Positions 6,061-61,223 of a DNA stretch of 64,000 nt are shown here, piece by piece. Source of the stretch: Minisyncoccota bacterium (GTDB lineage: Bacteria > Patescibacteriota > Minisyncoccia > JBAYJV01). The position numbers and the translations under genes are program-made. Under the pieces are notes generated by a model. The model saw nothing but the letters and a program-made list of their open reading frames with translations. It did no database searches and was not told the DNA's origin. Location: NCBI GenBank assembly GCA_041664925.1, contig JBAYJV010000004.1, forward strand, positions 26,998 to 90,997, read 5' to 3'. The stretch's first letter is position 1, and every line of letters begins with the position of its first letter.

Positions 6061-6108
6061 AGGCCTGGATGGGAATCGAACCCATATACACAGGGTTTTG
6101 TCCCAGAA
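6061..6108 (-). other. 3'-half tRNA-Cys-like fragment (positions 35 to 3' end; variable loop 2 nt longer than the intact copy) preceded by TTCTGGGA
   Basis: CAAAACCCTGTGTATATGGGTTCGATTCCCATCCAGGCCT matches the intact tRNA-Cys 3' half. Confidence 0.65.
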
Positions 6109-6196
6109 ACTTCTATTCCGCCTGCCTGACGGCAGTCAGGGTAGGCAGGGCATACTGGAATTAGAATTTCGGGATCCCGAATCACTATTTTCGGCA

Positions 6197-6267
6197 AGGC
6201 CTGGATGGGAATCGAACCCATATACAGGGTTTTGCAGACCCTTGCCTAACCACTCGGCCACCAGGCC
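6197..6267 (-). tRNA. tRNA-Cys (anticodon GCA), intact, 71 nt, discriminator U
   Basis: Acceptor GGCCTGG/CCAGGCC, anticodon stem AGGGT/ACCCT, loop CTGCAAA and GGTTCGATTCC T-arm. Confidence 0.85.
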
Positions 6268-6280
6268 GAAAATCAAGTGA

Positions 6281-6321
6281 TTCTGGGACAGACCCTTGCC
6301 TAACCACTCGGCCACCAGGCC
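6281..6321 (-). other. 5'-half tRNA-Cys fragment (nt 1-33, identical to the intact copy) followed by TCCCAGAA
   Basis: GGCCTGGTGGCCGAGTGGTTAGGCAAGGGTCTG is an exact duplicate of the tRNA-Cys 5' part and ends in the anticodon loop after G34. Confidence 0.7.
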
Positions 6322-22147: not shown

Positions 22148-22240
22148 TTGGTGGATTACCTAAAAATTCATTGGAACCAAATCATTCAAGAATTGGCGGT
22201 TTGGAGTCAATTGCAAACAGAGGCAAGTTTTGTTCTTAAG
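22148..22240. other. Conserved ~90-nt non-coding element, copy A (paralogous to 28371-28462)
   Basis: About 85% identical to the element upstream of the 23S gene, and the differences are almost all transitions. Confidence 0.55.
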
Positions 22241-22970: not shown

Positions 22971-23047
22971 TGGTGCGCGTGGTCGGATTCGAACCAACGA
23001 CCTTTCGCATGTGAAGCGAACGCTCTAACCAACTGAGCTACACGCGC
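22971..23047 (-). tRNA. tRNA-Val (anticodon CAC), CCA encoded
   Basis: GCGCGTGTAGCTCAGTTGGTTAGAGC..., anticodon stem TTCGC/GCGAA, loop TTCACAT, GGTTCGAATCC, 3' ACCA. Confidence 0.85.
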
Positions 23048-23078
23048 ATTGTAAAAAAGAAACAGACACATAGCGCTC

Positions 23079-23098
23079 CCTGCCTGCCGGCAGGCAGG
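23079..23098. repeat. Perfect 20-bp GC-rich palindrome CCTGCCTGCCGGCAGGCAGG (copy 1 of 3 identical)
   Basis: Exact self-complementary 20-mer about 30 nt upstream of tRNA-Val. Identical copies lie at 52438-52457 and 60096-60115. Confidence 0.9.
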
Positions 23099-23163
23099 TA
23101 ACCCCGTCCCAAGGACGGTCGGTCTTGGACCGAAACTGAGCTAATCGTCCTCTTTTAATAAAC

Positions 23164-24679: not shown

Positions 24680-24763
24680 TTCAGTGAAAACAAAGAAACT
24701 GAAAACTGATTAAATTTTAAGCTTAGAAGATATAAAAGTCAATTAAAAAAAGCCCTAAAATTG

Positions 24764-24878
24764 CTTGGCAACAACCTACTCTCCCACCCTTAATAGGACA
24801 GTACCATAGGCGCTGGCAGGCTTGACTTCCGTGTTCGGAATGGTAACGGGTATTTCCCTGTCGCTATAGCCACCAAGC
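24764..24878 (-). rRNA. rrf: 5S ribosomal RNA
   Basis: The reverse complement reads GCTTGGTGGCTATAGCG...CCGAACACGGAAGTCAAGCC...GGGAGAGTAGGTTGTTGCCAAG. Confidence 0.85.
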
Positions 24879-24902
24879 AATTTTAAGACTCTTTTTTTTG
24901 TT

Positions 24903-27900
24903 AAAGTTAGGGGCGTCATCACCTTCGGTTAATTAGTACTTCTTGGCTAAAATCTTCGCAGATCTTACACCTGAAGCCTATTATTCCACCAGAGGTGGAT
25001 ACCTGGTAATCTTCCAGGAACCTTAATGATACTTAATCTTGAGTTAGGTTTCGCACTTAGATGCTTTCAGTGCTTATCCTTTCCCGACGATAGCTACCCA
25101 GCCATGTCCTTGGCAGGACAACTGGTACACCAGAGGTCGGTTCCTTACGGTCCTCTCGTACTAGTAAGGAGTTCTCTCAAGTATCGACGCCTACGGCAGA
25201 TAGGAGACCAACCTGTCTTGCGACGGTCTGAACCCAGCTCGCGTATCTTTTTAATTGGCGAACAGCCAAACCCTTGGGACCTTCTCCAGCCCCAGGATAA
25301 GATGAGCCGACATCGAGGTGCCGAACAGGGTCGTCGATTTGGACTCTCGGACCCTACTAGCCTGTTATCCCCAGAGTAACTTTTATCTGTTAATCTTCCG
25401 CCTTTCTATTAAGGGCGGTCGGTTCACTAAGTTCTGCTTTCGCAATAGCTCGACTAATAAGTCTCGCTATAAAGCTGGCTTATAGCTTTACCCTATCCTC
25501 GCCGTTTCCATCGGCAAGTAGCCAACCTTAATAAGCTCCACCGTTACTTTTTTGGTGGAAAGTGCCCCACTTAAACTACCCGCCTAATACTGTTCCCCAC
25601 TATGTGAGGTTAGAACTATTATTTTGAAAGAGTGGTATTTCACTGGCGACTCCATCCCAACCGAAATCAGGACTTCAAAGTCTCCCACATATTCTACGCA
25701 TCCAAAACAAAAGCTCAATATCAAGTTGCAGTAAAGCTTCTGGGGTCTTTTCGTCTAGCCGTAGGTAATCGGCATCTTCACCGATATTGCAATTTCACCG
25801 AGCTCCTCGTTGAGACAGTTCTCCAGTCGTGACGCCATTCATGCGAGACAGAAGTTACCTGCCAAGGTATTTCGCTACCTTAGGACGATTATAGTTATCG
25901 CCGTCGTTCACTGGCGCTTACATCACGAGCCTTGCCCATAAGGACAAAACAAGCGATGCTTGACGTTCCAGCACTGGACAGGCGTCAGCCCCTATACTTC
26001 CTATTACTAGTTCGCAGAGACCTGTGTTTTTGATAAACAGTCGCCGGAGATCATTTGCTGTGGCCCCGATAAATCGGGGCAGGTCTTATCCCTAAGTTAC
26101 GACCACTTTTTTGCCTAGTTCCTTAACGAGGAATCACTCGTTCGCCTTCCCACTTTTATGGGAACCCACCTGTTTCGGATTTAAGTACGAATCCTATTTG
26201 TCTAATCTGAGAAGTTTTTCTTGGAAGCCTGCTCGCTCTACTTCCCCTGGCCGAGGCCAGAGTTCGATTCACTCCTTTGATTTGTCATTAAAGACAGTTT
26301 CCCGGATTTGCCTAAGAAACAATCCTTAGAGAAAAAACGCGAATCCAATAACGCGCTAGAGTTACTAAACTTCGTCACTCCATCGAAACAAATAGGAGGG
26401 CCGGAATATTAACCGGCTGTCCATCCCCTATACCCTCTCGGGTTAAGAGTTAGGATCGCCTAACCCTTGGCTGAAGTTCATTGCCAAGGAAACCTTGGGT
26501 TTTCGGCGGTCCGATTTCTCATCGGACTTGTGGTTACTCATGCCAACATTCTCACTTCCGTCCTCTCCATCGAACTTTACAGTTCAACTTCACTGTGAAC
26601 GGAACGCTTCCCTACCGCCCAGCAAAAATGCTGGGCCCACATCTTCGGTATTAAGCTTAGCCCCGTGAATCTTCGACGCATTCTGCCACCTCCGGCAAGC
26701 CGGAGTTCGAATGGTGAGTTGTTACACACTCCTTAGATGATTGCTACTTCTGAGCAAACATCCCATCTGTCTATGGCAAAATACTTCCTTCCTCACTTAG
26801 CTTAAATTTTGGGACCTTAGATGGTGGTCTAGGCTGTTTCCTTCTTGAGCACGGAGCTTAGCCCCCATGCTCTTACTGCCCCATAATTATTTCTGGCATT
26901 CGGAGTTTGTTTGGATGCAGTAGGAAAAATCCATCCACACCCATTCAGTGCTCTACCTCCAGAAACGTAAATGAGACGCTAGCCCTAAAGCTATTTCGGG
27001 AAGAACCAGCTATTACCAAGCTCGATAAGCTTTTCACTGCTAACCACAGATCATCCCACTTTATTGCACAGAAGACGGGTTCGGACCTCCTCCGCCTTTT
27101 ACAGCGAATTCATCCTGTCCATGGTTAGATCGCCTGGCTTCGGGTCTGTTGCTAACAACCGTGAACGCCATTTTAAGACTCGCTTTCGCTATGACTACCC
27201 CCACACTTTGCGCTCCATTTTTTTAGTATGAAATGCAAGGCGCGGGGTTAATCAAGCTGTTAACAACAACTCGTTGGCTCGTTCTACAAAAAGCACGCCG
27301 TCAGGGCGTAGAATAAATCTGCACCCCTCCGACTCATTGTAGGTATATAGTTTCATGTTCTATTTCACCGCCCTCACCGGGCTACTTTTCACCTTTCCCT
27401 CGCGGTACTAGTTCACTATAGATCATCAAGAGTATTTAGCCTTACCTGATAGTACAGGTAGATTCCTCCAGTTTCAGGCCGGAGTACTCAAGAATGACAA
27501 CCAGAAGTATATAGCCGTTTTCGTCTACGGGACTTTCACCCTCTTTGGTGGCTCTTTCCAGAGACCTTTGACTAACGAAGCTATATAAGCTCCTCGTGAA
27601 AAAATCACATTGTTATCATCTTACGACCCCCCAACGAAAACGTTGAGGTTTGGGCTGTTCCCTTTTCGCTCGCCGCTACTTGGGGAATACTTCGCTTCGC
27701 ACATTTTATCAAAACTTACTGAAATCTACGCTGAGAAACGCTGAAAAAATATATTATCTGCATTAATCGGCGTAGTCATCAGTATGAATTTGAAATGCGA
27801 AGTTATTTTTGGTTTCTTTTCCTCTGGCTACTAAGATGTTTCACTTCGCCAGGTTACCTTCCCAACATAAATGTCGGGATAATGGCCTTTAAGGCCATTG

Positions 27901-28030
27901 GGTTGCCCCATTCGGAAATCCTCGGATCACAGATTGCTCAGCATCTCACCGAGGCTTTTCGCAGCTATGCCACGTCCTTCATAGGCTCTTGATGTCAGGG
28001 AATCCACTATACACCCTTAGTTGGTGATGA
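24903..28030 (-). rRNA. rrl: 23S ribosomal RNA (about 3.1 kb; ends approximate)
   Basis: Sarcin-ricin loop (rc AGTACGAGAGGACCG at 25151-25167). The 5' end resembles GGTG.ATAGTGGATTCCCTGACATC and the 3' end GTACTAATTAACCGAAGG. Confidence 0.85.
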
Positions 28031-28287
28031 CACCTCTAACTTTAACATTTGATTTTGATTACCTAATATAGATTTTTAAAGTACATTTCCAAGAAAAATC
28101 TTTTATTTCAAATAAAGGACTTTTCTTGGGAAATCAGGGTAACTTAAAAGCCGCTCATTTTTCACAAACACGGGCGGCTTGAACAAACACACTAACGATC
28201 AACTAACTAGCCGCTCGATTAAGGTTTATTTAATTGCCTGATTTTTAACACTATTTTCCAAACAAGCTAAAAATACTTGTACAACAC

Positions 28288-28315
28288 ATTATATATCCAC
28301 AATTTTTCTTGTCAA
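28288..28315 (-). promoter_or_regulatory. Near-consensus sigma70-type promoter for the 23S-5S unit (TTGACA-N16-TATAAT on the minus strand)
   Basis: rc of 28280-28320 reads ggggcTTGACAagaaaaattgtggataTATAATgtg. It sits about 260 nt upstream of the 23S 5' end. Confidence 0.5.
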
Positions 28316-28370
28316 GCCCCGCCAATACTATCAGTGGATATTATGTGTATATTATTTTAAATAAATCGTT

Positions 28371-28462
28371 TTGAGTGGACCACTTGAAAATTCATTGGAA
28401 TCAAATCGTCCAAGAGTTGGCGGTTTGGGGTCAGTTACGAACAGAAACTGCTTTTGTTAATT
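28371..28462. other. Conserved ~90-nt non-coding element, copy B (paralogous to 22148-22240)
   Basis: It lies between the 551-aa gene stop and the 23S promoter. Shared core is AAAATTCATTGGAA.CAAATC.T.CAAGA.TTGGCGGTTTGG.GTCA.TT.C.AACAGA. Confidence 0.55.
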
Positions 28463-28538
28463 AATTTATCAAAATGGTTTACTAAATTCTACACCAAAAC
28501 TTGCTTCGGCGAACAATTATAAAGCTTCACTTGTTTCT

Positions 28539-30194
28539 CTATAAATAATGCCTAGACAAAAACCAAACTGGAATAATTCCCAATATAAATAAGCTTGCAA
28601 TACTCCAAAATGATAATGCCGCAAATAAACATAAAAAGACTAAAGAAAACGAAAAAGTAACGCTCGTTTTTGGTTTTCCTTTTGCGTCCCAACGTAAAAA
28701 TAGATAAAAACCAAGTAGTGTAAAAATATTACTAAGCCCAATCAACGCATATTTTATAAAATTTCGGTAATAGATTAATCCTATAATTCCACCCGCTAAG
28801 AAAGACAAGATGAAAGTAAGAAATATATAAAGAAAAATATTAAAGACAAGGGAAGTCTTAGAATTGTCTAGCCAATTAGAAATATGTAACATTAAAGAAA
28901 TTTTTAAGGGCGAGCCTTCTTTCATCCATAAATCTTTTTTAAGCGATTGAGCTGGAGCATTAATAGTTATTTTTGTGTAGTTAACATTTTTATTTTCATA
29001 AAACTCATTTAATTCTTTAGAGGGTGTAAATATTGTATCGTTAACATTTTTTTCTTGATCATTTTCAAGCCGATCAAACACCCAAGCCCTTCCCGCTCCC
29101 GACATTATTGCTATTTCATAATTGTCTTTATCGCCATGGAATAAAAAGGGTGATAAGCAGTATTTTTCCATATCTTTAATGAAATTTTTAGCGTCAGATC
29201 CATTATTTGGATCATTGCTTAAATCTTCTAATGAAGAAGGGAAGGAATTATAATTTCCATGATACAGCTCAAGTGACGACTTAAGACGATATATAGAAGA
29301 TCGGCACCAACGATCAAGATAGTCGGTTTGCATGTCTAAAAAATACTCTACTTTTGTGTATGGCTTTATTTCTGAAAAAATCTCTGGCTTAACATGTCCA
29401 AAAATTCTAATTGTCATCGGTACTTGTTTTTCACCATATATACTAGTAGGGATTAAAGGATAATAAATTTTTTGTGTAGGGAAAGCGATAAAAATACCTC
29501 TTTGTTTATCATCATTATTTAGGTTCTTAGATGAAAGCCAGGAAACCACAAAAACATAGTCTTGATTCATATACGAGCTTAGTGTTGTCATGTCCCCCTG
29601 TTTCACTTTTAGGCCTTTATTAGAAAGGTAATTATATAAGGATTCAGTTTTTTGGGCTGTGATTGTTTCCATTATCATACCATTTTTCTCTATGTGTTGA
29701 TTTACGGAAATAAAATCTCCTGACGTTGATCCAGTGCCTGATCCACCACGAGCACTTGTAAGCGATGTCCCGACCACAACAACTGGAAAAAAAGACCAAA
29801 ATTGACTAGTTGCACTTATAAAAAATAAGTTTTTGAGTGATCTTGAAAGTGCAAGTTTTATCTTAGACATAACTTCATAACCTCCGAAAACTGGTATCTC
29901 AGACATAATATTCATTTTTATCTCTTTTGCTTTTCCAGGGATAGGCATTATCCACACAGTATCAGAATTTTGTTCATCAATATCTACCACTACGACCAGT
30001 TTTTCTTGTCCATTTTGGTAATTAATAAAGGCTTCCTGATTATTTTCATCGGCTAGCACTAAATCACCATTAGGTAAGCGTCTATGTGCATAGCCATCGC
30101 CATTGGCACAAAAAGGAGAGCTTAATAAAGTTATTATGAATAAAGAAATGATAAGTTTTTTAATCATTATGATTTTATTTACTTTTATGCTCAT
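28539..30194 (-). CDS. Hypothetical secreted/membrane protein (N-terminal signal, C-terminal multi-TM region)
   Basis: A 551-aa ORF with coherent codon usage, a signal peptide and about 4 C-terminal TM helices. No family assigned. Confidence 0.45.
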   Translation of the reverse strand: MSIKVNKIIMIKKLIISLFIITLLSSPFCANGDGYAHRRLPNGDLVLADENNQEAFINYQNGQEKLVVVVDIDEQNSDTVWIMPIPGKAKEIKMNIMSEIPVFGGYEVMSKIKLALSRSLKNLFFISATSQFWSFFPVVVVGTSLTSARGGSGTGSTSGDFISVNQHIEKNGMIMETITAQKTESLYNYLSNKGLKVKQGDMTTLSSYMNQDYVFVVSWLSSKNLNNDDKQRGIFIAFPTQKIYYPLIPTSIYGEKQVPMTIRIFGHVKPEIFSEIKPYTKVEYFLDMQTDYLDRWCRSSIYRLKSSLELYHGNYNSFPSSLEDLSNDPNNGSDAKNFIKDMEKYCLSPFLFHGDKDNYEIAIMSGAGRAWVFDRLENDQEKNVNDTIFTPSKELNEFYENKNVNYTKITINAPAQSLKKDLWMKEGSPLKISLMLHISNWLDNSKTSLVFNIFLYIFLTFILSFLAGGIIGLIYYRNFIKYALIGLSNIFTLLGFYLFLRWDAKGKPKTSVTFSFSLVFLCLFAALSFWSIASLFILGIIPVWFLSRHYL

Positions 30195-30396
30195 ATTTTA
30201 CCACAGAACTTTAATTTACAGATGTGCATAATACTAAAGTCACGGATGGGCAAAGCAAAAAGCCACGACCAGTGTGGCTTACAAGAATTTTGTAGACTCG
30301 ACCGGATTCCCTCCTTCTCCCTGCAAGCCGGGATTCGGACGGGCAAAGCGAACTAGTGACCTCCCCGGCATGCCGGGGCGTTCTATTTTAAACACA

Positions 30397-30469
30397 TGGA
30401 CCGATGGGGACTCGAACCCCAGACCTCCGCATTGCAAATGCGATGCTCTACCAACTGAGCTATCGGCCC
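30397..30469 (-). tRNA. tRNA-Ala (anticodon TGC) with the G3:U70 identity pair
   Basis: GGGCCGATAGCTCAGTTGGTAGAGC..., anticodon loop TTTGCAA, GGTTCGAGTCC. The acceptor has G3-T70. Confidence 0.9.
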
Positions 30470-30589
30470 GTTAGATTTTGTTATTGAACGCAGTGAAATC
30501 TAAAAAATCTTACGCCCTACCGTAGCTTTTTAGCGAAGGCGGGCAACAACATTGACTGTTAACAAATATACTTCATTTGCACCAAAAAA

Positions 30590-31771
30590 TCAATCACCGC
30601 TTAGTGTTTTCATATAAATTTCATGGGTTTTTTTTGCCATTTCTTGCCAGTCATATTTTTCTAAAATATTCTGAGCTTCCATTAGAAGTTTAATTTGAAG
30701 CCTTTTGTCCTGCAAAAGAACATTTAATTTATTCGCCATATCTTCCGGATTGTGAGGATCAAAATAAATAGATGAGTTTTTTAACACTTCTTTTAGAGGG
30801 TCAATATTGGAGCAAGCAACGGCCGTACCTTGGTTGAGCGCTTCAATTGTCACAAGACCAAAACCCTCGTAAAGAGAAGGTAAAACAAAAACATCTGCTG
30901 CTTGATATAAAAGATTTAATTTTTCGCCATAAAGAAATCCTGGTCTTATGATCTTGTTTTCCAATCCTCTTTTTTTCCACTCTTCTCTTGTTTCCGGATA
31001 ATAAGAATCTTCTGTCCCTCCCAAGACTAAATTGCCTTGAAAATTATATTTTTTTACTAAAATATCAAAAGCGTGGATAAGGTTTGGTAGATTTTTGTGC
31101 TCTCGCCACACGCCAACATAGAAAATGTATGGTTTTCTTAGATTTTTTAAGTTAAATTTTGACTGGAGATTTTTAAGCGCTATTTCTTTATTCTGAGTAT
31201 AGTTTTCAAGAAATTCTTTTCTTTGATCTGCTGTATTTTTATACTTAATGCCCTCATAAATGATTCCTATCTTATCTTTTTCAACTTTATAAAAATTAAT
31301 TAAATCTTTTTTTGTTTTTTCTGATGGAGTAATAATGTGTTTTGCTTTTTTTGTGCCGACTTTCAAAATTAAATCATAAGCTTTTCTCTTGTACCAACTT
31401 TGTCCCATTTTGTGCCCTGGAAAAAATTTAGGCGTAATATCGTGAATCGTTGTTATATATTTGCCCCGATAAAAAATAGGTAAATTGAAATGAGGAAAAT
31501 GAACTAAATCAAGTTTATATTTCAATAAATCGTGCAAAAAGAATATTTGTTCTTTGGCACTATACCAATGAGAAGTGACTTTTATTTTTTTAAAGTTTTC
31601 TCCAGGTAAAATTATAGATTCCATTGCATCTGGCAATAAAAAAATAAAATAATAATTAATTTTATCTATTTTGGCTAGATAATCTATGAGATACTGAATG
31701 TAGGTACCAATGCCGGTTTGTTGCGGTCCATACATTCTTGCATCAATGCCAATTTTGAATTTTTTATCCAT
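30590..31771 (-). CDS. Glycosyltransferase family 4
   Basis: A C-terminal 'EGFGLVTIEAL' GT4 motif and a GT-B-like N-domain. Length is 393 aa. Confidence 0.8.
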   Translation of the reverse strand: MDKKFKIGIDARMYGPQQTGIGTYIQYLIDYLAKIDKINYYFIFLLPDAMESIILPGENFKKIKVTSHWYSAKEQIFFLHDLLKYKLDLVHFPHFNLPIFYRGKYITTIHDITPKFFPGHKMGQSWYKRKAYDLILKVGTKKAKHIITPSEKTKKDLINFYKVEKDKIGIIYEGIKYKNTADQRKEFLENYTQNKEIALKNLQSKFNLKNLRKPYIFYVGVWREHKNLPNLIHAFDILVKKYNFQGNLVLGGTEDSYYPETREEWKKRGLENKIIRPGFLYGEKLNLLYQAADVFVLPSLYEGFGLVTIEALNQGTAVACSNIDPLKEVLKNSSIYFDPHNPEDMANKLNVLLQDKRLQIKLLMEAQNILEKYDWQEMAKKTHEIYMKTLSGD

Positions 31772-32921
31772 TATTTTTAAATAATTTTATTGTTTCCTGG
31801 GCACAGTTTTTCCAATTAAATTTCTGAGAAATTTTTATAGCTTTTTTTTCAAGCTTATTTCTTAAGGCTGGATCATTTAAAAGCAATTCCATTGCCCATG
31901 TAATTTCACTATATCGATATGGGTCGATCATAATCCCCCCTTCTCCAACGACAGAAGAAAGTGACGATCTATTGGATGCAATAATCGGCAAGCCACAACT
32001 CATCGCCTCAAGAATTGGCAATCCAAATCCTTCAAAGAAACTGGGATACACAAAAATCTTTGCTAGATTATACAGATAAATTCTCTCGTTTCGATCTATT
32101 GGTCCTAAGAAAAATATATCTTTTTTATAATTAGATTTTTGGATTTCGTGAAAAATTTTTCTAAAAAGCCATCCTTTTGGTCCCGCCAAAACTAACTTAT
32201 ATTTACCAAACTCAGAATTGCAATTTCTTAAAAGATTATAAGCCTTAACAATAGACACTATGTTTTTCCTAGGCTCCAGTGTTCCGAGATATAGAATGAA
32301 ATCATTGGGTAAGTTGTGTTTTTGTATAATCTTCTTTAAAGTTTTACTAGATTTTTCAATTGGTTTTAGGTCTTCCCCTTTCCCCAAGGAAATAACTGTG
32401 ATTTTGCCTTTTTTGATATTGTAGAAATATTCTATGTCTTGTTTTGTTGATTCAGAAACAGAAAAAATTTTCTTCGATCTCTCAGCTAAAAATTTTGGCC
32501 TAATAAACCAGTGCCAAAGCCTGCTTTTATAAGAAAAAAATTCAGGAAATCTTTTAAAAGAAAGGTCGTGAAATGTAATGATTGTTTTTTTTAGAATATG
32601 CTCTGGAATAATATTAATATTTGGAGCAAAAAATACATCGGGTCTTTCAAGAAATTTATCTAAATTTGGCCAATTAAGAAAACGCCAACAAACAGCAAGT
32701 AGTTTATTTGGATAATTTAAATGTTTGTTTCCTACATTAGAATATTTTTTGCATAATTCCTTTATATCGTCGTGAATTAGTTTATTTTTCCCGCTAGAAA
32801 ATAATAAATATTTATTTTCTTGATCAATTTTAAAAATTTCTTCAAGCAAACACAAAAGATATTCCTGAACTCCAGAATGTATTCTGTCCTGCAATGCCCT
32901 GATATCAATTGCGATTTTCAT
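31764..32921 (-). CDS. Glycosyltransferase family 4
   Basis: 'EGFGLPILEAMSCGLPIIAS' motif. It overlaps the downstream GT4 gene by 8 nt, which suggests an operon. Confidence 0.8.
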   Translation of the reverse strand: MKIAIDIRALQDRIHSGVQEYLLCLLEEIFKIDQENKYLLFSSGKNKLIHDDIKELCKKYSNVGNKHLNYPNKLLAVCWRFLNWPNLDKFLERPDVFFAPNINIIPEHILKKTIITFHDLSFKRFPEFFSYKSRLWHWFIRPKFLAERSKKIFSVSESTKQDIEYFYNIKKGKITVISLGKGEDLKPIEKSSKTLKKIIQKHNLPNDFILYLGTLEPRKNIVSIVKAYNLLRNCNSEFGKYKLVLAGPKGWLFRKIFHEIQKSNYKKDIFFLGPIDRNERIYLYNLAKIFVYPSFFEGFGLPILEAMSCGLPIIASNRSSLSSVVGEGGIMIDPYRYSEITWAMELLLNDPALRNKLEKKAIKISQKFNWKNCAQETIKLFKNNG

Positions 32922-32998
32922 AAATTACAAACTAATAATATTTGCGTTTTTTGTTCTATTCATTTAGCATACCACCCAAAAACTTTTTTGAAAAGAAA

Positions 32999-33023
32999 AG
33001 CGAGACAAAAATCTTGTCTCGCT
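32999..33023 (-). terminator. Stem-loop terminator-like hairpin (GCGAGACAA-loop-TTGTCTCGC)
   Basis: A perfect 9-bp stem immediately downstream of the 117-aa gene. Confidence 0.45.
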
Positions 33024-33030
33024 TGCTTTC

Positions 33031-33384
33031 TTAAAAACTACTACGAGTGGTAAATCGAATACCGTCTTCCATGTCTCTTTTTGTTCTTTCAAATTCTTCT
33101 TTTTCTTTTTTCAGAACGTCACTTACTAAATCTTCGGGTATTACAAGAAGAAGATCGGGCCAGAATGGAAGCTTTAGCAGATAACTTTTGGTTTTTTCAT
33201 CCCAATAGTAATAAATCCGAAAATCTAGTCTTTCGCCTTCAGAATGCAAAACACATAACATTCCTACTTCTGCTTTATCCTTTATCTCAAGTATTGCGTC
33301 ATTTCCTATATCTCTAAGACTATATCTGGGACCCATAATACTTTCTACTAGTTTTCTTATGTGTTTTGCTGTGATTTGACTCAT
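33031..33384 (-). CDS. Hypothetical protein
   Basis: A 117-aa ORF. No family could be recognised. Confidence 0.4.
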   Translation of the reverse strand: MSQITAKHIRKLVESIMGPRYSLRDIGNDAILEIKDKAEVGMLCVLHSEGERLDFRIYYYWDEKTKSYLLKLPFWPDLLLVIPEDLVSDVLKKEKEEFERTKRDMEDGIRFTTRSSF

Positions 33385-33622
33385 CTGTTTTTCTCCTCTT
33401 CCTTTGAAAACTTCTAAATACCAACTCTTGTTTTGGGCTTACTTGTTTACACTTATCACCTCCTCATTTTTTAAAGAACAAAAAATAGCCCTTTGATAGG
33501 CTATTTTATTATCAAGAACTTTATTAGATTTTTAGAAAAAGAAAAAACAACCTATCTAGGACTAGTTATTAAAAACCACCAAAACAAATTGTTATAAAAC
33601 TTTTTATTCATATTTTTCTATG

Positions 33623-33696
33623 TGGGCGTACTTGGACTTGAACCAAGGACCTCGTCATTATCAGTGACGCGCTCTAGCCAACTGAGCTATACGCCC
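33623..33696 (-). tRNA. tRNA-Ile (anticodon GAT)
   Basis: GGGCGTATAGCTCAGTTGGCTAGAGC, anticodon stem CGTCA/TGACG, loop CTGATAA, GGTTCAAGTCC. A hairpin at about 33492-33520 looks like its terminator. Confidence 0.9.
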
Positions 33697-33797
33697 GTAA
33701 TTTAGAATATAAGCTATTTTACAAAAATATCAGATAAAATCAAGTCTGTACGCAAAATATCTGACAAAACATCATTACTTCTTAATCCTGACCATTG

Positions 33798-34541
33798 CTA
33801 ACATTTATCCCAAATAAATTGAAACCATTGCCTATAACTTTCTGCTAATAATTTGTTTTTGGTAATAATAACCGTTATTCTTTCGTCAAATCTTCCAACG
33901 CTTTTAATTACGACTGTGGCTATTCGATCTCCGTATATATCTATAGTTGCCTGACTATCATATTGTTTGGGTAAAATTTTGTATTGCCAAAATTTCTCAC
34001 GACCTTTAATTAGCTTTTTAAATTCTTCTTTTGCCTTGTCATCCACAAGAGTGTTTAATTTTATTTTTTTCTTTTTTGCTTCAATCCAAAATTCATCCAT
34101 AAAAGAAGATATTTGTTCATCCGCCCAAGCACTTTTTATTCCGACAGCATAAATGTTTTCTCCGACTTCGAGAATGTCTCTAAATAAATTTTTATATCCC
34201 TCAATCCCCTTATATATAGACACATCTTCTTCTAGATATTTATCTTTATAAAGTTTTTTTAGCTTAGGCAAAACTTTTTCTACTGCTATTTTTTTCTCTC
34301 CAACAATTTCTAATAGTTTTACAGGATTTACGGCGGCATACTTATGTTCTTGGCTGGTTACAATACACGAAAGAAGTCCTTTTTCAACAAGACGATTAAC
34401 AGTATCATAGACATTTCTTCGATGGATATTAGCGCGAAGTGCTATGTCTGAAACTGAAGATCGTCCCAGCTCAAGGAGAGTTTCATAGACTTTTGCCTCA
34501 TTTAAAGACAGCCCAATAGATTGAAATAATTCTGTGTACAT
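33798..34541 (-). CDS. TrmB-family (HTH) transcriptional regulator
   Basis: An N-terminal wHTH 'LSLNEAKVYETLLELGRSSVSDIALRANIHRRNVYDTVNRLVEKGLL' is typical of TrmB-like regulators. Length is 247 aa. Confidence 0.6.
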   Translation of the reverse strand: MYTELFQSIGLSLNEAKVYETLLELGRSSVSDIALRANIHRRNVYDTVNRLVEKGLLSCIVTSQEHKYAAVNPVKLLEIVGEKKIAVEKVLPKLKKLYKDKYLEEDVSIYKGIEGYKNLFRDILEVGENIYAVGIKSAWADEQISSFMDEFWIEAKKKKIKLNTLVDDKAKEEFKKLIKGREKFWQYKILPKQYDSQATIDIYGDRIATVVIKSVGRFDERITVIITKNKLLAESYRQWFQFIWDKC

Positions 34542-34615
34542 GGTTATTTTATTAGTTTATTGAATTAAATTTGGAATTGAATTAATCAAAAATGGTCAAA
34601 AATACTGTGGTGGTG

Positions 34616-34644
34616 TTGGCCACTCATATATGATATGATAAAAT
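34616..34644 (+). promoter_or_regulatory. Putative sigma70-type promoter (TTGGCC-N17-TAAAAT) for the paralog pair
   Basis: The hexamers are visible in the divergent intergenic region between the TrmB-like gene and ORF A. Confidence 0.4.
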
Positions 34645-34654
34645 GGTATTAGGG

Positions 34655-34671
34655 TCAAGAATCGTTCTTGA
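34655..34671. promoter_or_regulatory. Perfect inverted-repeat operator candidate TCAAGAA-tcg-TTCTTGA
   Basis: A 7-bp IR with a 3-bp spacer between the putative -10 and the RBS of ORF A. It lies next to a divergently transcribed HTH regulator. Confidence 0.45.
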
Positions 34672-34700
34672 TTGTTCCTAAAAAAACAAAGGAGGAAATC

Positions 34701-35078
34701 GTGAGGAAATTCAAAGTAGAAAAAACTAGAATCCACAATGTTTTTTCTCCAGGAAATCGGTATCCATTCAATCTATTTCTAGAAACCACCTCTGGCGGTT
34801 CTGTAGTTGCGTTTATTGATAATGATAGTTCCTATACTTGTTCGTCGGATGACATTCGTTCATCAATTGAAGAAGCTTGGAAAAAATTGACTATAGTACT
34901 TTGTCAAAACAAAAATATTCTAGGCATCGCGATAGTTGCCCATCCATTCGAAATTCGTTGTAGCTTCAAGAGAGAAAACTATGAAGGAGATAAGTGTGAA
35001 AGCTTTATTGCTATCTTTCTGGCCGACCTTCGGAAGAATGGTTGGATAATACCCGACTACTATATCATCCAGAATTGA
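34701..35078 (+). CDS. Hypothetical protein, paralog A of a tandem pair (GTG start)
   Basis: RBS AAGGAGGAAATC then GTG. It is a paralog of the downstream ORF (shared 'EK..I..F.P.NR.P.F.L.L', 'W K.L.I', 'C...R......D.SF.IA.L..LRK..W'). GC content is higher than the surroundings. Confidence 0.5.
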   Translation: MRKFKVEKTRIHNVFSPGNRYPFNLFLETTSGGSVVAFIDNDSSYTCSSDDIRSSIEEAWKKLTIVLCQNKNILGIAIVAHPFEIRCSFKRENYEGDKCESFIAIFLADLRKNGWIIPDYYIIQN

Positions 35079-35102
35079 TCACTGCAAACAAAGGAGGAAA
35101 TC

Positions 35103-35549
35103 GTGAAAGTCGTAGCAGAAAAAGTAACGATATCGGGTATGTATGCGCCGAATCATCGACTTCCATCATTCACATTGGTTCTAAAGAAAAAGGTTCGCAG
35201 TCGCAAAATCAATGTGAATGTTGACGATATTCACGATTCGACACTTCTTGAAAGTTTTTCTTTTGACGAAACCTGGAAAGAGCTTGTGATTGCGTTTATG
35301 CAAATTGAACTCACAGAAAGTGTTACTGCTAATAAGTACTATCATAGAGGCCTTCAATGTTCTGTTAGAAAACCGGTCACTTCGGTCACTCTATCCGACT
35401 TCACTATTGCCCTATTAGATAGTTTTCGAGAGAAGAAGTGGAACTTCGAAGACTGTTATGTAAATCACGAATACATTGCCAGAGATGAAAAAGGATTATC
35501 ACCAACAGATAAAATTCAAATGGCAATTAAAAAGACCACCAGTTCTTAA
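35103..35549 (+). CDS. Hypothetical protein, paralog B of a tandem pair (GTG start)
   Basis: The upstream motif is identical (caaaggaggaaatcGTG), and it encodes 148 aa. Confidence 0.55.
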   Translation: MKVVAEKVTISGMYAPNHRLPSFTLVLKKKVRSRKINVNVDDIHDSTLLESFSFDETWKELVIAFMQIELTESVTANKYYHRGLQCSVRKPVTSVTLSDFTIALLDSFREKKWNFEDCYVNHEYIARDEKGLSPTDKIQMAIKKTTSS

Positions 35550-35557
35550 GAAAAAAA

Positions 35558-35589
35558 AGAGCTCCAGAAATGGGGCTCTTCTTTTTTTA
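35558..35589. terminator. Bidirectional rho-independent terminator (AGAGCTCC-loop-GGGGCTCT, flanked by A/T runs)
   Basis: aaaaaaaagagctccagaaatggggctcttcttttttt lies between the end of ORF B (+) and the 3' end of 16S (-). Confidence 0.6.
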
Positions 35590-35752
35590 CATAAAAAAAC
35601 ACCCAAAAAATATTAAGTGTTCTTTTTTAAACCAATTCTTTAGGGTTACCCCGAGACTGATTTTTTGAGATGTTCAGTCGCATCTCTGTCTTGTCCAATG
35701 GACAAGAGGTCGACTCCCACCCCGAACAATAAAGTTCAGAGTGAAGATTCTC

Positions 35753-37340
<1,588 letters not shown>

Positions 37341-49676: not shown

Positions 49677-49949
49677 CTATTCGTATGGTTCAAATGGATT
49701 TTCTCGCCCCGGAAATCTCGGCTCTATAGGGTATTTACCATATCTGGCTAACCCCTGGAAAAAGTCTGACTTTAAAACACCTAGTTCCAGTTTATACTCT
49801 GTTGGAATATTGTTTTTAGAAAGATTTTCGTCTAAATTTTTATCTTTAAAAACTTTCAAATAAATAAAAATTGATATTACTAAAACTAGAACTAGTATCA
49901 TTACAACTGCTATGTATAGATTTTTTTTATTTTCAAAAAATTGAGACAT
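49677..49949 (-). CDS. Small membrane protein (hypothetical, in the pil operon)
   Basis: 90 aa with a single TM. Confidence 0.35.
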   Translation of the reverse strand: MSQFFENKKNLYIAVVMILVLVLVISIFIYLKVFKDKNLDENLSKNNIPTEYKLELGVLKSDFFQGLARYGKYPIEPRFPGRENPFEPYE

Positions 49950-49963
49950 CTTTCTTGTGTTAG

Positions 49964-50052
49964 TAATAAGATTACTTTTACTAGCGTAATAAGATTACTT
50001 TTACTAGCGTAATAAGATTACTTTTACTAGCGTAATAAGATTACTTTTACTA
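49964..50052. repeat. About 4 tandem copies of a 23-bp unit (taataagattacttttactagcg)
   Basis: Exact tandem repeats in the pilO/small-ORF intergenic region. Confidence 0.85.
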
Positions 50053-50601
50053 GTAATAATATGTGACAATGTTTATATTAAAATCGTAAATTGTCTGACC
50101 ATTAATTTTTTCGGCGTTTTGACTGGGAGAAGAAAAGGAGATGTTGGTTATGTCCATTAATCTGAGATCGTTTTGACTTAGCAACATTAAATTTTTAAGA
50201 GTTTCGTATGTTCCTTTGGTTCTAAGGTTTATAGAAACCTTACTGACTCCAGCTTGATCGCCAACTCCACCTACGTTATTGTTGCTAGGAGTTATATTAA
50301 CCCCTTTCAAAATCATGCCGCTTTTTGTCACAAGCGCTTCAGTTTCCACCATAAGCTCTTCGGTCATTGGCTCAACCGGCAATATTGTCTTCATTTTTTC
50401 TTTTTCTTCCGTTAATGTTTTGAGTTGTATTTCGTATGAATTAATTCTGTCAATTTCTTTTTCTTTAGATGCTAGTAATTCTTTTTGTCTAGTTATTTCT
50501 GCTTTTGATATTTTTATATCGCTAAATATCGGCGCAATAAAAAAGTACCAAACAGTTACAAAAACAACAAATAAGAAAAATATTAAAAGTTTAGGTTTCA
50601 T
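50050..50601 (-). CDS. PilO-like pilus assembly protein (start adjusted)
   Basis: A single N-terminal TM, a coiled-coil region and a C-terminal domain. It lies downstream of pilN/pilM. Confidence 0.5.
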   Translation of the reverse strand: MKPKLLIFFLFVVFVTVWYFFIAPIFSDIKISKAEITRQKELLASKEKEIDRINSYEIQLKTLTEEKEKMKTILPVEPMTEELMVETEALVTKSGMILKGVNITPSNNNVGGVGDQAGVSKVSINLRTKGTYETLKNLMLLSQNDLRLMDITNISFSSPSQNAEKINGQTIYDFNINIVTYYY

Positions 50602-51249: not shown

Positions 51250-52329
51250 CTACTTTTCTAATCCCCTTTTGGCCAAACCAACAGCGACTGCAAAATATGG
51301 ACCTTGCGCTTCTAGCGTATTTTTGATCGTTGGCGGAATAATAATATTTTTCCAAGGATTAATAACTTCTACTTCCGTCCCCAGTTTTTCTCTAAAATAT
51401 TCAACTAATCCTTTTAATAAAACCGCTCCTCCTGATAATATAATTTTATTAACCTTAAGCGAATCCGTTTGGCGACGCTTAATCCGATCAACTATGTCTT
51501 CAAAGTGAGGTAAAAGAGCGCTTTTTACAATCGGATCATCTAGTCCTTTTTCCCTTTTAAGTTTTTCTGCGTCGTTGAAACTCAAGCTTCTTTTTTCATG
51601 AAGAATAGAACGAGTGAAATCATCACCAGAAATATTGATATTGAAAGTATCTTTTATAAATGATTCGAAGAATACTGTAACATTTGTGTTTTGTCCTCCT
51701 ATGTCAATGAATATATAGTGTCCCGAATCAGGAAGACCGGCAGACCTAAATAAGGAAAAGATTTCTACTTCCAATACCTCTGGTTCAACTTTTAAAAATT
51801 TTGTTAAAGTTTGATATCTAGTAACAATATCTTTTGGCACTGCCATTAAAAACACCTCTTGAATCATAATCCCTTGCTTATCGCCACTCAAAATATCCGC
51901 CGATTGCGTCAATCCTGCTTGGGTTTCCCTAATAACTCTCCATTCCAAGATTGTTTCTTCAATTGGTATAGGAACATGTTTTTTTGCCTCAAATTTAATT
52001 GCATTATTCAGTTCTTCTCCTTCAAGATCAGCCGGCAGTCTCAAAATAGTTGTAAAGGTTGAATGGATAGGTATTGATACTGCTGCTTTTTCACTTTGAA
52101 AAGTCGTTGCTTTAAAAACTTCTTTCATAATCCTCCCGAGTTCTATTGGTGAAAGTTTCAAAAAATTCTCTCGACTCTCCATCAATGGATCGCTTTTTAT
52201 ATTAGAATATGTTGAGGCATAATTTTTTAAATAAATACTGCCTCTTTTTTTTTCAAGCTCAACCAATTTCAGAGTTGAACCTCCTATATCGATGCCTAAA
52301 TATGTATTATCGTTTGAAAAAAGTCCCAT
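51250..52329 (-). CDS. pilM: Type IV pilus assembly protein PilM (actin-like ATPase fold)
   Basis: 'LGIDIGGSTLKLVEL' and a second 'FIDIGGQNTNV' phosphate motif. Length is 359 aa. Confidence 0.8.
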   Translation of the reverse strand: MGLFSNDNTYLGIDIGGSTLKLVELEKKRGSIYLKNYASTYSNIKSDPLMESRENFLKLSPIELGRIMKEVFKATTFQSEKAAVSIPIHSTFTTILRLPADLEGEELNNAIKFEAKKHVPIPIEETILEWRVIRETQAGLTQSADILSGDKQGIMIQEVFLMAVPKDIVTRYQTLTKFLKVEPEVLEVEIFSLFRSAGLPDSGHYIFIDIGGQNTNVTVFFESFIKDTFNINISGDDFTRSILHEKRSLSFNDAEKLKREKGLDDPIVKSALLPHFEDIVDRIKRRQTDSLKVNKIILSGGAVLLKGLVEYFREKLGTEVEVINPWKNIIIPPTIKNTLEAQGPYFAVAVGLAKRGLEK

Positions 52330-52500
52330 AAATCTTTCAAATCCGAAAATCGAATATCGAAATTCGAAATAATATCTAATTTTTAATTTTCAAAGTATTA
52401 AAACGGTTTCGAATTTAAAATTTTAAATATTTGAATTCCTGCCTGCCGGCAGGCAGGTGTTTCGAGTTTCGTGCTTTAAAATTTCGGATTTAATTTAAAT
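52330..52500. repeat. MITE-like AT-rich repeat (family copy 1) with 'aaatccgaaaatcgaatatcgaaattcgaaat' terminal inverted repeats, carrying the 20-bp palindrome at 52438-52457
   Basis: Shares 'atatctaatttt', 'aaaacggtttcgaatttaaaat' and 'tttcgtgct' blocks with 63492-63660 and 61090-61222. Confidence 0.6.
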
Positions 52501-53775
52501 TTAGCGCGGTATTACTTCAATATATTCTGGTTGTCCAGGCCTGACATTGAATGTCGTTGATGTCGAACAACTCTTCGTTCCAGAGTCAAAATGAATTGTG
52601 TGCGTTACTGTTCTGGGAGATACTTCACTATAAGTATGTGTCGCATTTTGAGTGCTGGCAGCTGTGCTATCGCCAAAATCCCAGAAATAACTTTCTACTG
52701 AATAGGATCCCGGGTCAGATGTTGACGTATCTTGAAAATTAATTTCATCGCCAATCTTCGGTTTTGTAGGACTCATTGTAAATCCGCACTCAGGATAATT
52801 TATTGGTACTGTAAATCCTGGCCCAGAAGTCCATGATGACCAGAGCCCGTCATTGTCTTGTACTCTCACTTCCCAAGAATACGTTTGACCATACCGAACC
52901 CTTAGGGGTGTCAAAGATAAACTTTCACTTGTCCCGATTAAGACTCCTTGTGATTGATCATCGCCATCCTCAAACTGATTAGGAAGATAAGGTCCGGGAG
53001 AAGAAGTTCCCGAAGATCCAGTTCCAGTATTAGTGAGTCTTAATTCATAAGTGTTTTCGTAGGCACCAATATCGATATCACGAAATGTCCAGTTTAGAAA
53101 ATAGTTTGCGGTATTATTACAAAGATCGTTATTGTTTGGTCCGGTAATATTTGTGTTTTCTACATACGGAGAATTATTGAAAACTAATGGATTAGTCCAA
53201 ATATAATAACCTGTACCACTAGAACTTATCCATCCTATAACTGCTGTGCTAGTAGTTGTTCCCCCACCCCAAGCATAATCAGAAAAACGACCAGTATTTA
53301 AATCAACACTAAGACCATAAAGAGTATCTCTTAATTTGATCCAACCGTAATCATCTCCAATTAAGTTAACGGCTTTTGCCCAACCGGACACTTGTCCATT
53401 CGCCGGATTAATTGTTGGTGTACAATTTGCGTGATCAGGACATTCGCCAGCTGTAACATCAAAACTAATCCAGCCGATATTATCTGACCAAGCATTGCCA
53501 GAAAAAACATGGGTTGAAGTGGAAATCGTCACGCCATAAGTACTTGTTCCGCAAATATTCGATTGACTTGGCCCTCCTTCAGTACAATTAAAACTGATCC
53601 AACCAATGTTATCTGACCACGCCCAGCCATGAACATTATCACTCGCAGACGCATAACATAGTCCTGTGAAAATCAAAAAACCTCCCAAAAGGAAAACAGC
53701 GCCCACGGATAATTTTAGTAGGATTTTTTTCAAATCTAATCTTAACATCTTTATAAAGATTATATCACAAAACAC
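52501..53775 (-). CDS. Secreted protein with a duplicated 'AWSDNIGWISF' motif and a C-terminal PKD domain
   Basis: A signal peptide and a PKD signature 'YFWDFGDST...HTY'. Length is 424 aa. Confidence 0.6.
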   Translation of the reverse strand: MFCDIIFIKMLRLDLKKILLKLSVGAVFLLGGFLIFTGLCYASASDNVHGWAWSDNIGWISFNCTEGGPSQSNICGTSTYGVTISTSTHVFSGNAWSDNIGWISFDVTAGECPDHANCTPTINPANGQVSGWAKAVNLIGDDYGWIKLRDTLYGLSVDLNTGRFSDYAWGGGTTTSTAVIGWISSSGTGYYIWTNPLVFNNSPYVENTNITGPNNNDLCNNTANYFLNWTFRDIDIGAYENTYELRLTNTGTGSSGTSSPGPYLPNQFEDGDDQSQGVLIGTSESLSLTPLRVRYGQTYSWEVRVQDNDGLWSSWTSGPGFTVPINYPECGFTMSPTKPKIGDEINFQDTSTSDPGSYSVESYFWDFGDSTAASTQNATHTYSEVSPRTVTHTIHFDSGTKSCSTSTTFNVRPGQPEYIEVIPR

Positions 53776-60079: not shown

Positions 60080-60128
60080 GGAAGGGTGGCTGAGACCTGC
60101 CTGCCGGCAGGCAGGGGCTGAAAGCAAC
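60080..60128 (+). other. Duplicated 5' portion (nt 1-29) of tRNA-Ser(GCT), precisely interrupted in the D-loop by the 20-bp palindrome (60096-60115)
   Basis: GGAAGGGTGGCTGAGA[CCTGCCTGCCGGCAGGCAGG]GGCTGAAAGCAAC. The parts flanking the palindrome equal the first 29 nt of the intact tRNA-Ser. Confidence 0.8.
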
Positions 60129-60139
60129 AAATATAAGAT

Positions 60140-60364
60140 ATGTTTTATGTTTATTTTCTAAAAAGTAAAAAAGATAATAATTTATATATAGGTCGGACAA
60201 ATAATATCAAAAGAAGATTCTGTGAACATAATGCAGGTAGTGTGCCTTCTACAAAATCGAGAAAACCATTCATACTTTTAGGATATGAAACATGCGAAAC
60301 TGAAAAAGAATCAGTAGAAAAAGAGAAATTGAGTTCAAAAAAGGATATAAGAGAGAAGAACTAA
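60140..60364 (+). CDS. Small GIY-YIG nuclease-domain protein
   Basis: 'FYVYFLKS.KDNNLYIGRTNNIKRRFCEHNAG...SRKPFILLGYE' matches the GIY-YIG catalytic core (GIY...YIG...R...E...N). Confidence 0.7.
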   Translation: MFYVYFLKSKKDNNLYIGRTNNIKRRFCEHNAGSVPSTKSRKPFILLGYETCETEKESVEKEKLSSKKDIREKN

Positions 60365-60388: not shown

Positions 60389-60479
60389 GGAAGGGTGGCT
60401 GAGAGGCTGAAAGCAACGGTTTGCTAAACCGTTAACTGCCTTTATAAGCGGTTCGAGGGTTCGAATCCCTCCCCTTCCG
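60389..60479 (+). tRNA. tRNA-Ser (anticodon GCT)
   Basis: Acceptor GGAAGGG/CCCTTCC, anticodon stem ACGGT/ACCGT, loop TTGCTAA, long variable arm and GGTTCGAATCC. GC-rich hairpins follow at 60482-60560. Confidence 0.85.
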
Positions 60480-61222: not shown

Positions 61223-61223
61223 T

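Follow-up and report, generated by a model that had tools for sequence, protein, structure and literature searches.

A 20-nucleotide GC-rich palindrome occurs as a precisely inserted unit in bacterial genomes and is coupled to tRNA-associated cassettes of small GIY-YIG nucleases

A stretch of 64,000 nucleotides (nt) from a Minisyncoccota bacterium (contig JBAYJV010000004.1, positions 26,998 to 90,997; in the following, the window) harbors several copies of the 20-nt GC-rich palindrome CCTGCCTGCCGGCAGGCAGG, here referred to as PAL, some of them in or next to fragmented tRNA genes. This raises the question of what such a short sequence is and how it came to occupy these sites. The window, which derives from JGI contig Ga0376277_0001514, is low in GC (~30-37% outside the rRNA genes) and Patescibacteria-like, with 11 tRNAs and unlinked rRNA genes. 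Our analysis shows that PAL is a discrete, precisely inserted unit of 20 nt that was recently active, and that a tight link exists between PAL and the relic tRNA copies of cassettes encoding small GIY-YIG nucleases. As the favoured explanation, with a probability of about one half, we regard PAL as a non-coding mobile mini-hairpin which is coupled to GIY-YIG cassettes that replace tRNA genes.

A sequence scan located exact copies of PAL at 23079-23098, 52438-52457 and 60096-60115, in agreement with a preliminary description of the window, as well as copies with two mismatches at 6121-6140 (CCTGCCTGACGGCAGTCAGG) and 63514-63533 (CCTGACTGCCGTCAGGCAGG). Both imperfect copies had been recognized before, the second one with slightly shifted limits (63513-63534), which are corrected here. 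No match to PAL was found in 100 dinucleotide-preserving shuffles of the window. The contexts of the five copies are as first described. The exact copies lie upstream of tRNA-Val, where a relic tRNA 5′ copy is interrupted in its D-arm region, in the first copy of an AT-rich repeat in the interval between pilM and a PKD-domain gene, and between nt 16 and 17 of a tRNA-Ser(GCT) copy. The imperfect copies lie in the insert of a split tRNA-Cys (plus strand) and, in opposite orientation (minus strand), in the second copy of the AT-rich repeat. Both represent one and the same non-palindromic 20-mer, and its presence in both orientations indicates that this variant has itself been copied as a unit. 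DNA folding yields a hairpin for PAL (-8 kcal/mol) and for the variant (-5.6 kcal/mol), as anticipated by the suggestion of a hairpin-forming element; the variant CCTGCCTGACGGCAGTCAGG is composed of a CCTG tail and a hairpin with a 6-bp stem and a 4-nt loop. PAL contains no stop codon in any frame.

The earlier proposal that the 20-mer behaves as an independently inserted unit is borne out by exact 20-nt differences between filled and empty sites, in the window and at many other loci. Filled and empty paralogues within the window differ by exactly 20 nt, without target duplication. The AT-rich repeat of ~165 nt is present in three copies that align well, namely copy 1 (52320-52510, plus strand, repeat family D7), copy 2 (63480-63670, plus strand, D7 and D18) and copy 3 upstream of tRNA-Arg (61085-61225, plus strand, D18). 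The variant at 63514 interrupts copy 2 between TTTC and GAAAT by exactly 20 nt, and PAL at 52438 occupies a different position of copy 1; each of these sites is empty in the other two copies, so that copy 3 carries no 20-mer at all. For 38 cassettes elsewhere, spliced alignment of the relic to the intact tRNA gave inserts of 20 nt in 26 cases, of 19 nt in five, of 40/41 nt in four and of 56 nt in one, and the tRNA numbering resumes after PAL without a gap in most of 22 cassettes. The tRNA copies end at nt 23-46 and PAL enters them at nt 9-31, with insertion positions clustering near the middle of the repeat (p/n ~0.56). Terminal inverted repeats from a parent insertion sequence and target-site duplications, which characterize miniature inverted-repeat transposable elements, were not found for PAL: the 20-nt inserts have unbroken flanks, and no parent insertion sequence was detected.

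The surroundings of the insertion sites show further regularities. Among copies sampled through PAL, the base preceding the insert is A in 42% of the flanks, and inverted repeats of at least 6 bp surround 9.5% of the solo copies, compared with 2.7% of controls. At two loci (L018 and L042), PAL is nested within PAL. Tandem arrays of heptamers adjoin 6.6% of the copies versus 0.6% of controls and are seen in unrelated phyla. Exact 7-bp flanking direct repeats occur at 3.6% of the copies versus 0.05%, mostly within such arrays, which vary on their own by slippage; tRNA insertion sites show no 7-bp flanking repeats. The evidence for a 7-bp target duplication by PAL is thus ambiguous. The idea that PAL targets the single-stranded loops of the tRNA cloverleaf was dropped after hand mapping placed several sites in stem strands of the D-arm (after nt 11, 12, 22 and 23).

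The tRNA-Ser locus of the window combines a PAL insertion with a nuclease gene. A truncated copy of tRNA-Ser(GCT) (60080-60128, plus strand), which matches nt 1-29 of the intact gene perfectly except for the added PAL, is split by this insert into 16 and 13 nt and forms the left border of a GIY-YIG cassette. The open reading frame (ORF) of a small GIY-YIG nuclease (60140-60364, plus strand; 74 amino acids (aa); Pfam PF01541, E=1e-14) begins 11 nt after this relic, and its C-terminus is frameshifted with respect to an 80-aa orthologue at locus L240. The intact tRNA-Ser(GCT) (60389-60481, plus strand) follows 24 nt past the stop codon. The nearest solved structures to the ORF product are the UPF0213 proteins 1YWL and 1ZG2, and the NCBIfam and PHROGs profiles gave only generic GIY-YIG matches. 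Downstream of the tRNA, the region 60482-60607 (plus strand) comprises a cluster of GC-rich hairpins (e.g. 60485-60500 and 60505-60519) and then the relic of a GIY-YIG C-terminus (60548-60607, FEKYLKSGSGRDFANKHLI*), its motif being compared with the GIY-YIG alignment. We read this region as a probable second, decayed cassette on the 3′ side of tRNA-Ser. An insertion of tRNA-Ser into the GIY-YIG gene was also considered and dropped, as L240 has a complete orthologue and the downstream C-terminal piece is assigned to the second cassette.

Comparison with syntenic relatives points to recent activity at this locus. Locus L240, whose ComF is 68% identical to that of the window, shares the tRNA-Ser cassette and has two PAL units, one nested in the other, at the nucleotide where the window has a single one; in L242 and L244, comF is directly followed by tRNA-Ser without any cassette. 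Thus, the comF/tRNA-Ser interval is polymorphic, being filled in the window and L240 and empty in L242 and L244. At the sequence level, the gene next to PAL in the window combines a GIY-YIG domain with presence/absence polymorphism and flanking co-conversion, as expected of a homing cassette. Locus L238 (ComF 91% identical) has a variant 20-mer at a site that is empty in the window. Furthermore, tRNA-Arg(GCG) alleles are serially replaced among the syntenic relatives. L240 (5540-5660) contains a PAL-bearing relic of the window-type allele ahead of a different allele, and in L244 (4330-4470) the window-type allele is preceded by the relic of a third allele, which carries a 20-nt hairpin; these relics of earlier alleles indicate that tRNA genes are being replaced. 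The sole other contig with identical proteins, L236, is a twin of the source contig and has the same PAL sites, so that no strain-level polymorphism of these sites was found.

How general the link between PAL and the nuclease is was examined in two sets of loci. All-against-all clustering of ORFs from 120 loci selected through PAL revealed the small GIY-YIG protein as the only non-housekeeping family in common, its gene starting 39-60 nt after PAL and beside a tRNA. The GIY-YIG protein, which the preliminary description named as a nuclease that might cut the 20-mer, is the product of the only recurrent neighbour. To avoid ascertainment bias, 80 metagenome loci were fetched through the GIY-YIG protein alone; they were scanned with alignment A2, the seven-sequence alignment A1 being too divergent. 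In 44 of the 80 loci, a tRNA on the same strand starts 42-126 nt past the domain match, and PAL with at most three mismatches is found upstream in 33, exactly in 25. Nearly all of these copies lie 38-70 nt upstream of the nuclease start codon, with one at -133. Every PAL-bearing locus with enough sequence has a tRNA downstream, and within the 80 loci no PAL was found where a tRNA is missing. At least one additional cassette (L192), in which PAL itself is interrupted, escaped the scan. In nearly all of 36 cassettes examined, the sequence upstream of the nuclease is a 5′ copy of the downstream tRNA. The tRNAs concerned are those for Asn, Arg, Phe, Gly, Gln, Trp and Asp and four Leu isoacceptors, in addition to Ser in the window and Lys at L037. 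At L060, PAL and a GIY-YIG domain are both located in frame within an HsdS-like gene with no tRNA nearby.

The position of PAL between the former tRNA start and the nuclease ORF, at a distance from the start codon held to 18-50 nt, together with the stability of its hairpin, could also be taken to indicate a role at the RNA level. In this case, the tRNA promoter would drive transcription of a nuclease mRNA with the relic tRNA copy and the hairpin as its 5′ leader, and the hairpin would serve as a stem-loop for stabilization or processing, or as a handle for a protein. We give this little credence: non-palindromic variants occur in both orientations with respect to the ORF, with G-T-compatible strands mixed, and most copies lie outside any such leader, some of them in coding sequence. 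In addition, the Rfam 15 covariance models produced no match at any PAL site, either at the gathering score or at E<=1.

The recurrence of the exact 20-mer beyond the window, which the preliminary description had left to a genome-wide count, was assessed in a one-genome-per-species collection of 596 Gb, for which we estimate ~0.5 exact matches by chance. At least 120 genome stretches from about nine phyla contain the exact sequence. Among the matches listed, the hosts include Patescibacteria, Bacteroidota, Omnitrophota, Planctomycetota, Bdellovibrionales, Gamma- and Deltaproteobacteria, Nitrospirota-like or Thermodesulfovibrio-like bacteria and Chloroflexi, with cultured Bacteroidota represented by Winogradskyella, Flagellimonas, Longitalea and Flavivirga; the host GC content ranges from 30 to 72%. 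A further 35 stretches were obtained from viral contigs, and a BLAST search of phage records with a PAL dimer gave no match. The flanks are unrelated between loci.

One and the same short palindrome in many unrelated assemblies might suggest a sequencing adapter or an assembly artefact. This is hardly conceivable, given that PAL is found on Mb-scale scaffolds of cultured isolates and on a closed chromosome, occupies homologous positions in orthologous loci of independent assemblies, has variants with compensatory changes, and is read through in frame in some coding sequences.

For 167 copies picked by the 20-mer alone, the genomic context differs from that in the window. A tRNA is found within 400 nt of only 10% of them, compared with 3.3% of random positions, so the claim that the palindromes are mostly inserted in or beside tRNA genes holds locally but not in general. 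PAL is specifically associated with the truncated tRNA copies of GIY-YIG cassettes rather than with functional tRNA genes. In 13% of the copies versus 55% of random positions, both flanks are free of stop codons over at least 60 codons, and about a dozen copies are true in-frame inserts, e.g. in FtsK (L013), in ribosomal protein S6/rpsF (L047) and in the HsdS-like gene of L060. The operator-like size of the perfect palindrome and the fact that ~87% of the copies are not deep in ORFs would be compatible with an ordinary host regulatory site, an operator or a terminator. Such a role is highly improbable. No T-run follows any of the five copies in the window, as would be required for an intrinsic terminator, and copies are found upstream of ORFs and within coding sequence, unlike intrinsic terminators at the 3′-ends of genes. 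There is also no tie to particular genes or promoters; PAL is found in dead tRNA fragments, nested in itself and in frame in FtsK, rpsF and HsdS, and it is missing from syntenic relatives at all sites compared.

PAL is accompanied by related sequences. Other 19-20-mers at the same kind of site are TCTACCTGTCGGTAGACAGG, CCTGACTACCGTCAGGTAGT, CCTGCCTGTCGGCAGACAGG and CCTGCCTACCGGCAGGCAGG, the last of them at seven loci, and a further form of the family consists of CCCGCC-loop-GGCGGG followed by CAGG. The members share a 6-bp stem maintained by compensatory changes, a loop of 3-4 nt and a 4-nt tail. Recent activity is seen here as well: at L193 a 20-mer is nested in a hairpin loop and is missing at L194, the tandem cassettes of L170 are near-identical except for a 19-nt hairpin, and at L222 a 20-mer constitutes the difference between the two direct repeats. 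In 13 pairs of homologous cassettes, the mismatch rate of PAL is 2.3% versus 24% for the 30-nt flanks. The rate of change in PAL is about one tenth of that in its flanks, and its sequence is strongly constrained.

This constraint bears on the idea that the 20-mers are repair scars, in which breaks in tDNA-like sequence (tDNA, the DNA of tRNA genes), produced by host nucleases that cleave hairpins or by the GIY-YIG nuclease, were healed by a short template switch that copied a hairpin from elsewhere in the genome. PAL would then be a by-product without function. Inserts that are precise, quantised in length and free of target duplication are consistent with this, as are the nesting inside other hairpins and the concentration beside nuclease genes. 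However, functionless DNA should decay, and PAL is instead about tenfold more conserved than its flanks and identical across phyla; apart from the preference for A at position -1, no junction microhomology is visible. We consider this origin unlikely.

According to the explanation we favour, PAL would be the commonest member of a family of ~20-nt GC-rich hairpin mini-insertions, a selfish non-coding DNA whose units would be copied precisely into new sites without target-site duplication. A second selfish system, to which PAL is physically coupled, would consist of cassettes with GIY-YIG nucleases of ~80 aa that settle directly upstream of tRNA genes, or replace them, and would leave a truncated 5′ tRNA copy (nt 1 to ~23-46) at the left border. 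The hairpin sits within this relic, mostly in the D-arm region and 18-50 nt before the nuclease start codon. We infer that the GIY-YIG nuclease is the trans-acting partner of PAL, and likewise the chemistry of insertion: either the palindrome would be the site recognized or cleaved by the nuclease, or the hairpin would be copied into nuclease-made breaks. The insert would presumably benefit the cassette. It would cut the direct repeat formed by relic and intact tRNA into two short pieces and disable the relic, and we propose that a cassette whose direct repeat is interrupted by PAL can no longer be cleanly lost by repeat recombination. Solo copies, whether in AT-rich repeats, in hairpins or in frame in genes, would represent secondary insertions of the PAL unit.

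Several observations weigh against this explanation. About 90% of the PAL-sampled copies have no tRNA or GIY-YIG gene in the ~8 kb examined, and PAL-bearing relics without a nuclease gene precede the tRNA-Val of the window, the tRNA-Arg of L240 and the tRNAs at L001, L004, L015 and L030. Conversely, a second class of related small GIY-YIG genes (L156, L159, L163, L165, L166 and L175) is associated with neither tRNA nor PAL. The entry point of PAL varies between nt 9 and 31 and the sites share no common sequence motif, so that a single fixed cleavage site is not evident. An intact tRNA beside the cassette would stay a target if the nuclease recognized tDNA, and the nuclease ORF of the window is frameshifted at its C-terminus.

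The first of these points, that most copies and even some relics have no nuclease gene nearby, would also be expected if PAL were a repeat similar to the repetitive extragenic palindromic (REP) sequences and were moved, independently of the GIY-YIG nuclease, by an unlinked host enzyme or an undetected transposase. The relics would then be neutral DNA, and cassettes with an interrupted direct repeat would survive longer, a survivorship which fits the mid-repeat clustering of insertions; the 4-nt tail followed by a hairpin is REP-like as well. Nevertheless, no transposase or recombinase family is common to the 120 PAL loci, and, in contrast to REPs, one identical sequence recurs in different phyla. 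Moreover, nearly all relics, at ~35 nt, hold at least one hairpin, as compared with five PAL-type copies in a 64-kb window, which is far above what a neutral target would collect. Movement by an unlinked enzyme is accordingly a possible but doubtful alternative.

A different role for the nuclease would follow if the hairpin were a protein-binding handle and the flanking tRNA-derived sequence a guide, so that the cassette constituted a minimal nucleic-acid-guided homing system. The 80-aa GIY-YIG nuclease lacks a DNA-binding domain; it would be programmed by the relic tRNA copy with PAL, as RNA or single-stranded DNA, and would cut matching alleles without the insert. Every solo PAL would act as a drive that guides itself to its own empty site. 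An invariant handle with flanks that differ according to the target tRNA, an L240 relic that matches the foreign and not the resident tRNA-Arg allele, and a nuclease of ~80 aa, too small to read 30 bp alone, are all compatible with guidance. We nevertheless regard it as very unlikely.

Compared with known systems, PAL as part of a hairpin family coupled to nuclease cassettes most closely recalls the REP sequences and bacterial interspersed mosaic elements with their REP-associated tyrosine transposases (RAYT, TnpA-REP). Common to both are a short GC-rich hairpin with a conserved 4-nt tail, many non-coding intergenic copies, and a single repeat-flanked protein gene as the presumed mobilizer. 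In contrast to REPs, the tail of PAL is CCTG/CAGG (NCTR in variants) and never GTAG, no Y1/HUH transposase is common to the 120 PAL loci, the sole linked gene encodes a GIY-YIG nuclease, the length is fixed at 20 nt, the same sequence recurs in about nine phyla instead of being lineage-specific, and tRNA relics and coding sequences are entered as well. An assignment to the REP type, or to orphan clustered regularly interspaced short palindromic repeats (CRISPR), as the preliminary description envisaged, is thus not supported, PAL having nothing in common with CRISPR arrays.

In behaviour, PAL resembles the GC clusters of yeast mitochondria and the hairpin elements of fungal and sponge mitochondria, which are GC-rich, palindromic, self-nesting and sometimes genic in AT-rich genomes (PMC4478555, PMC2800124). 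The likeness is confined to behaviour, the mechanism of their mobility being likewise unexplained. GC clusters are organellar, ~30-60 nt long or longer and lineage-specific with class-specific consensus sequences, whereas PAL is bacterial, occurs in hosts with 30-72% GC, genomes of 60-70% GC among them, and is tied to a nuclease/tRNA cassette. The cassettes themselves recall free-standing GIY-YIG homing endonucleases in tRNA clusters, e.g. SegB of phage T4 (PMC2330249, PMC13096335), in the location of the GIY-YIG gene beside tRNA genes, in the replacement or duplication of tRNA regions and in tandem amplification. Unlike SegB-type enzymes, the proteins described here are ~80 aa in size, comprise the catalytic domain alone, lacking a DNA-binding domain, and are encoded on the chromosomes of many phyla. 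The truncated tRNA copy that nearly always bears a 20-nt hairpin has not been described for Seg enzymes.

Palindromic repeats within genes are also represented by the Rickettsia palindromic elements, which are 100-150 nt long, restricted to one genus and located in frame in protein genes and in RNA genes; PAL shares the genic location, and differs in its 20-nt size and its spread across phyla. HIP1 of cyanobacteria is a GC-rich perfect palindrome of 8-10 bp that is over-represented phylum-wide and restricted to this one phylum; to our knowledge, its origin is unexplained and it is not demonstrably an inserted unit. CCTGCCTGCCGGCAGGCAGG was not found in the full-text literature, and keyword searches for a described system returned analogues only. 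PAL is apparently undescribed, and it is unusual in its fixed 20-nt unit, its identity across phyla and its partnership with nucleases and tRNA relics.

If the favoured explanation is correct, PAL would be among the smallest mobile DNA units described, a non-coding sequence of 20 nt that is the same from Patescibacteria to Bacteroidota and Planctomycetota. Together with the tiny GIY-YIG nucleases, which would replace tRNA genes and leave relics marked by hairpins, it would make up a selfish system of two parts that is widespread. This would account for the split, nested and duplicated tRNA fragments that confuse the annotation of reduced genomes, as well as for odd protein inserts of the 'LPAGRQ' type. 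Furthermore, the system would offer a tractable bacterial model for the movement of mitochondrial GC clusters and REP-like hairpins and would draw attention to an 80-aa nuclease with unexplained target specificity.

Two more tRNA loci of the window carry 20-mers. At tRNA-Val, PAL at 23079 is located 31 nt upstream of the intact tRNA-Val(CAC) (22971-23047, minus strand). The tRNA-5′-like string noticed there before is real and belongs to a relic tRNA 5′ copy (23063-23150, minus strand) with the structure GGACGATTAGCTCAGTT[TCGGTCCAAGACCGA][CCGTCCTTGGGACGG]GGTTA[PAL]GAGCGC..., which holds three hairpin inserts, namely two 15-mers and PAL. Its acceptor arm is unlike that of the adjacent tRNA-Val. 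The nested tRNA-Cys locus (6061-6321, minus strand; tRNA calls and repeat families D4 and D15) consists of an intact tRNA-Cys (6197-6267) between the 5′ half (6289-6321, nt 1-33) and the 3′ half (6061-6100) of an outer tRNA-Cys that is interrupted inside its anticodon. A spacer separates the outer 5′ half from the intact gene, and a 96-nt arm between the intact gene and the outer 3′ half (6101-6196) carries the variant 20-mer. The inner tRNA-Cys is flanked by inverted repeats of ~20 nt (GAATCACTTGATTTTCGGC / GCCGAAAATAGTGATTC). Just 3′ of tRNA-Ala (30290-30380, minus strand), a perfect 16-nt GC palindrome, CCCCGGCATGCCGGGG, is accompanied by more GC-rich sequence and may be another hairpin insert or tRNA relic.

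Some tRNA-related loci outside the window are unusual. On an IMG/VR contig with 65% GC (L145, 2239-2330), PAL forms the long variable arm of a tRNA-Met that is still called by ARAGORN and may be functional. L179 (~1880-2261) contains a full-length dead copy of tRNA-Leu adjoining the intact copy, with PAL in the D-arm, an insert of ~52 nt at the anticodon stem and one of ~40 nt in the T-loop. At L039 (~1100-1290), PAL lies within a large T-loop insert of a 3′ tRNA-Val relic. Inverted repeats such as ACCCCCACACCAATTG...CAATTGGTGTGGGGGT enclose the second-class GIY-YIG genes, and at L163 a palindromic element of ~115 nt is found on each side of the gene.

Heptamer arrays and other repeats are found at additional places in the window. 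The AT-rich repeats have inverted heptamer arrays as arms (AAATCCG... / ...CGGATTT). An in-frame array, (TTCAAAA)x4, is located within recG (61314-63491) at ~62620-62650; in the near-identical ENA contig L236, recG has three heptamer copies and is split by the resulting 7-nt frameshift. Tandem repeats in AT-rich intergenic DNA were found at 49940-50076 (23 nt, ~5 copies) and at 773-879 (19 nt, ~4 copies). The rRNA region (24763-37340) contains genes for a TrmB-like regulator, two GT4 glycosyltransferases and a DUF2330 protein among 16S, tRNA-Ile, tRNA-Ala and 23S, and the 23S match, with 3117 nt compared to 2925 nt of the model, may contain an insertion. Finally, a direct repeat of 84 nt with 80% identity (22151-22234 and 28375-28458, family D5), its copies 6.2 kb apart, flanks the 23S/5S region.

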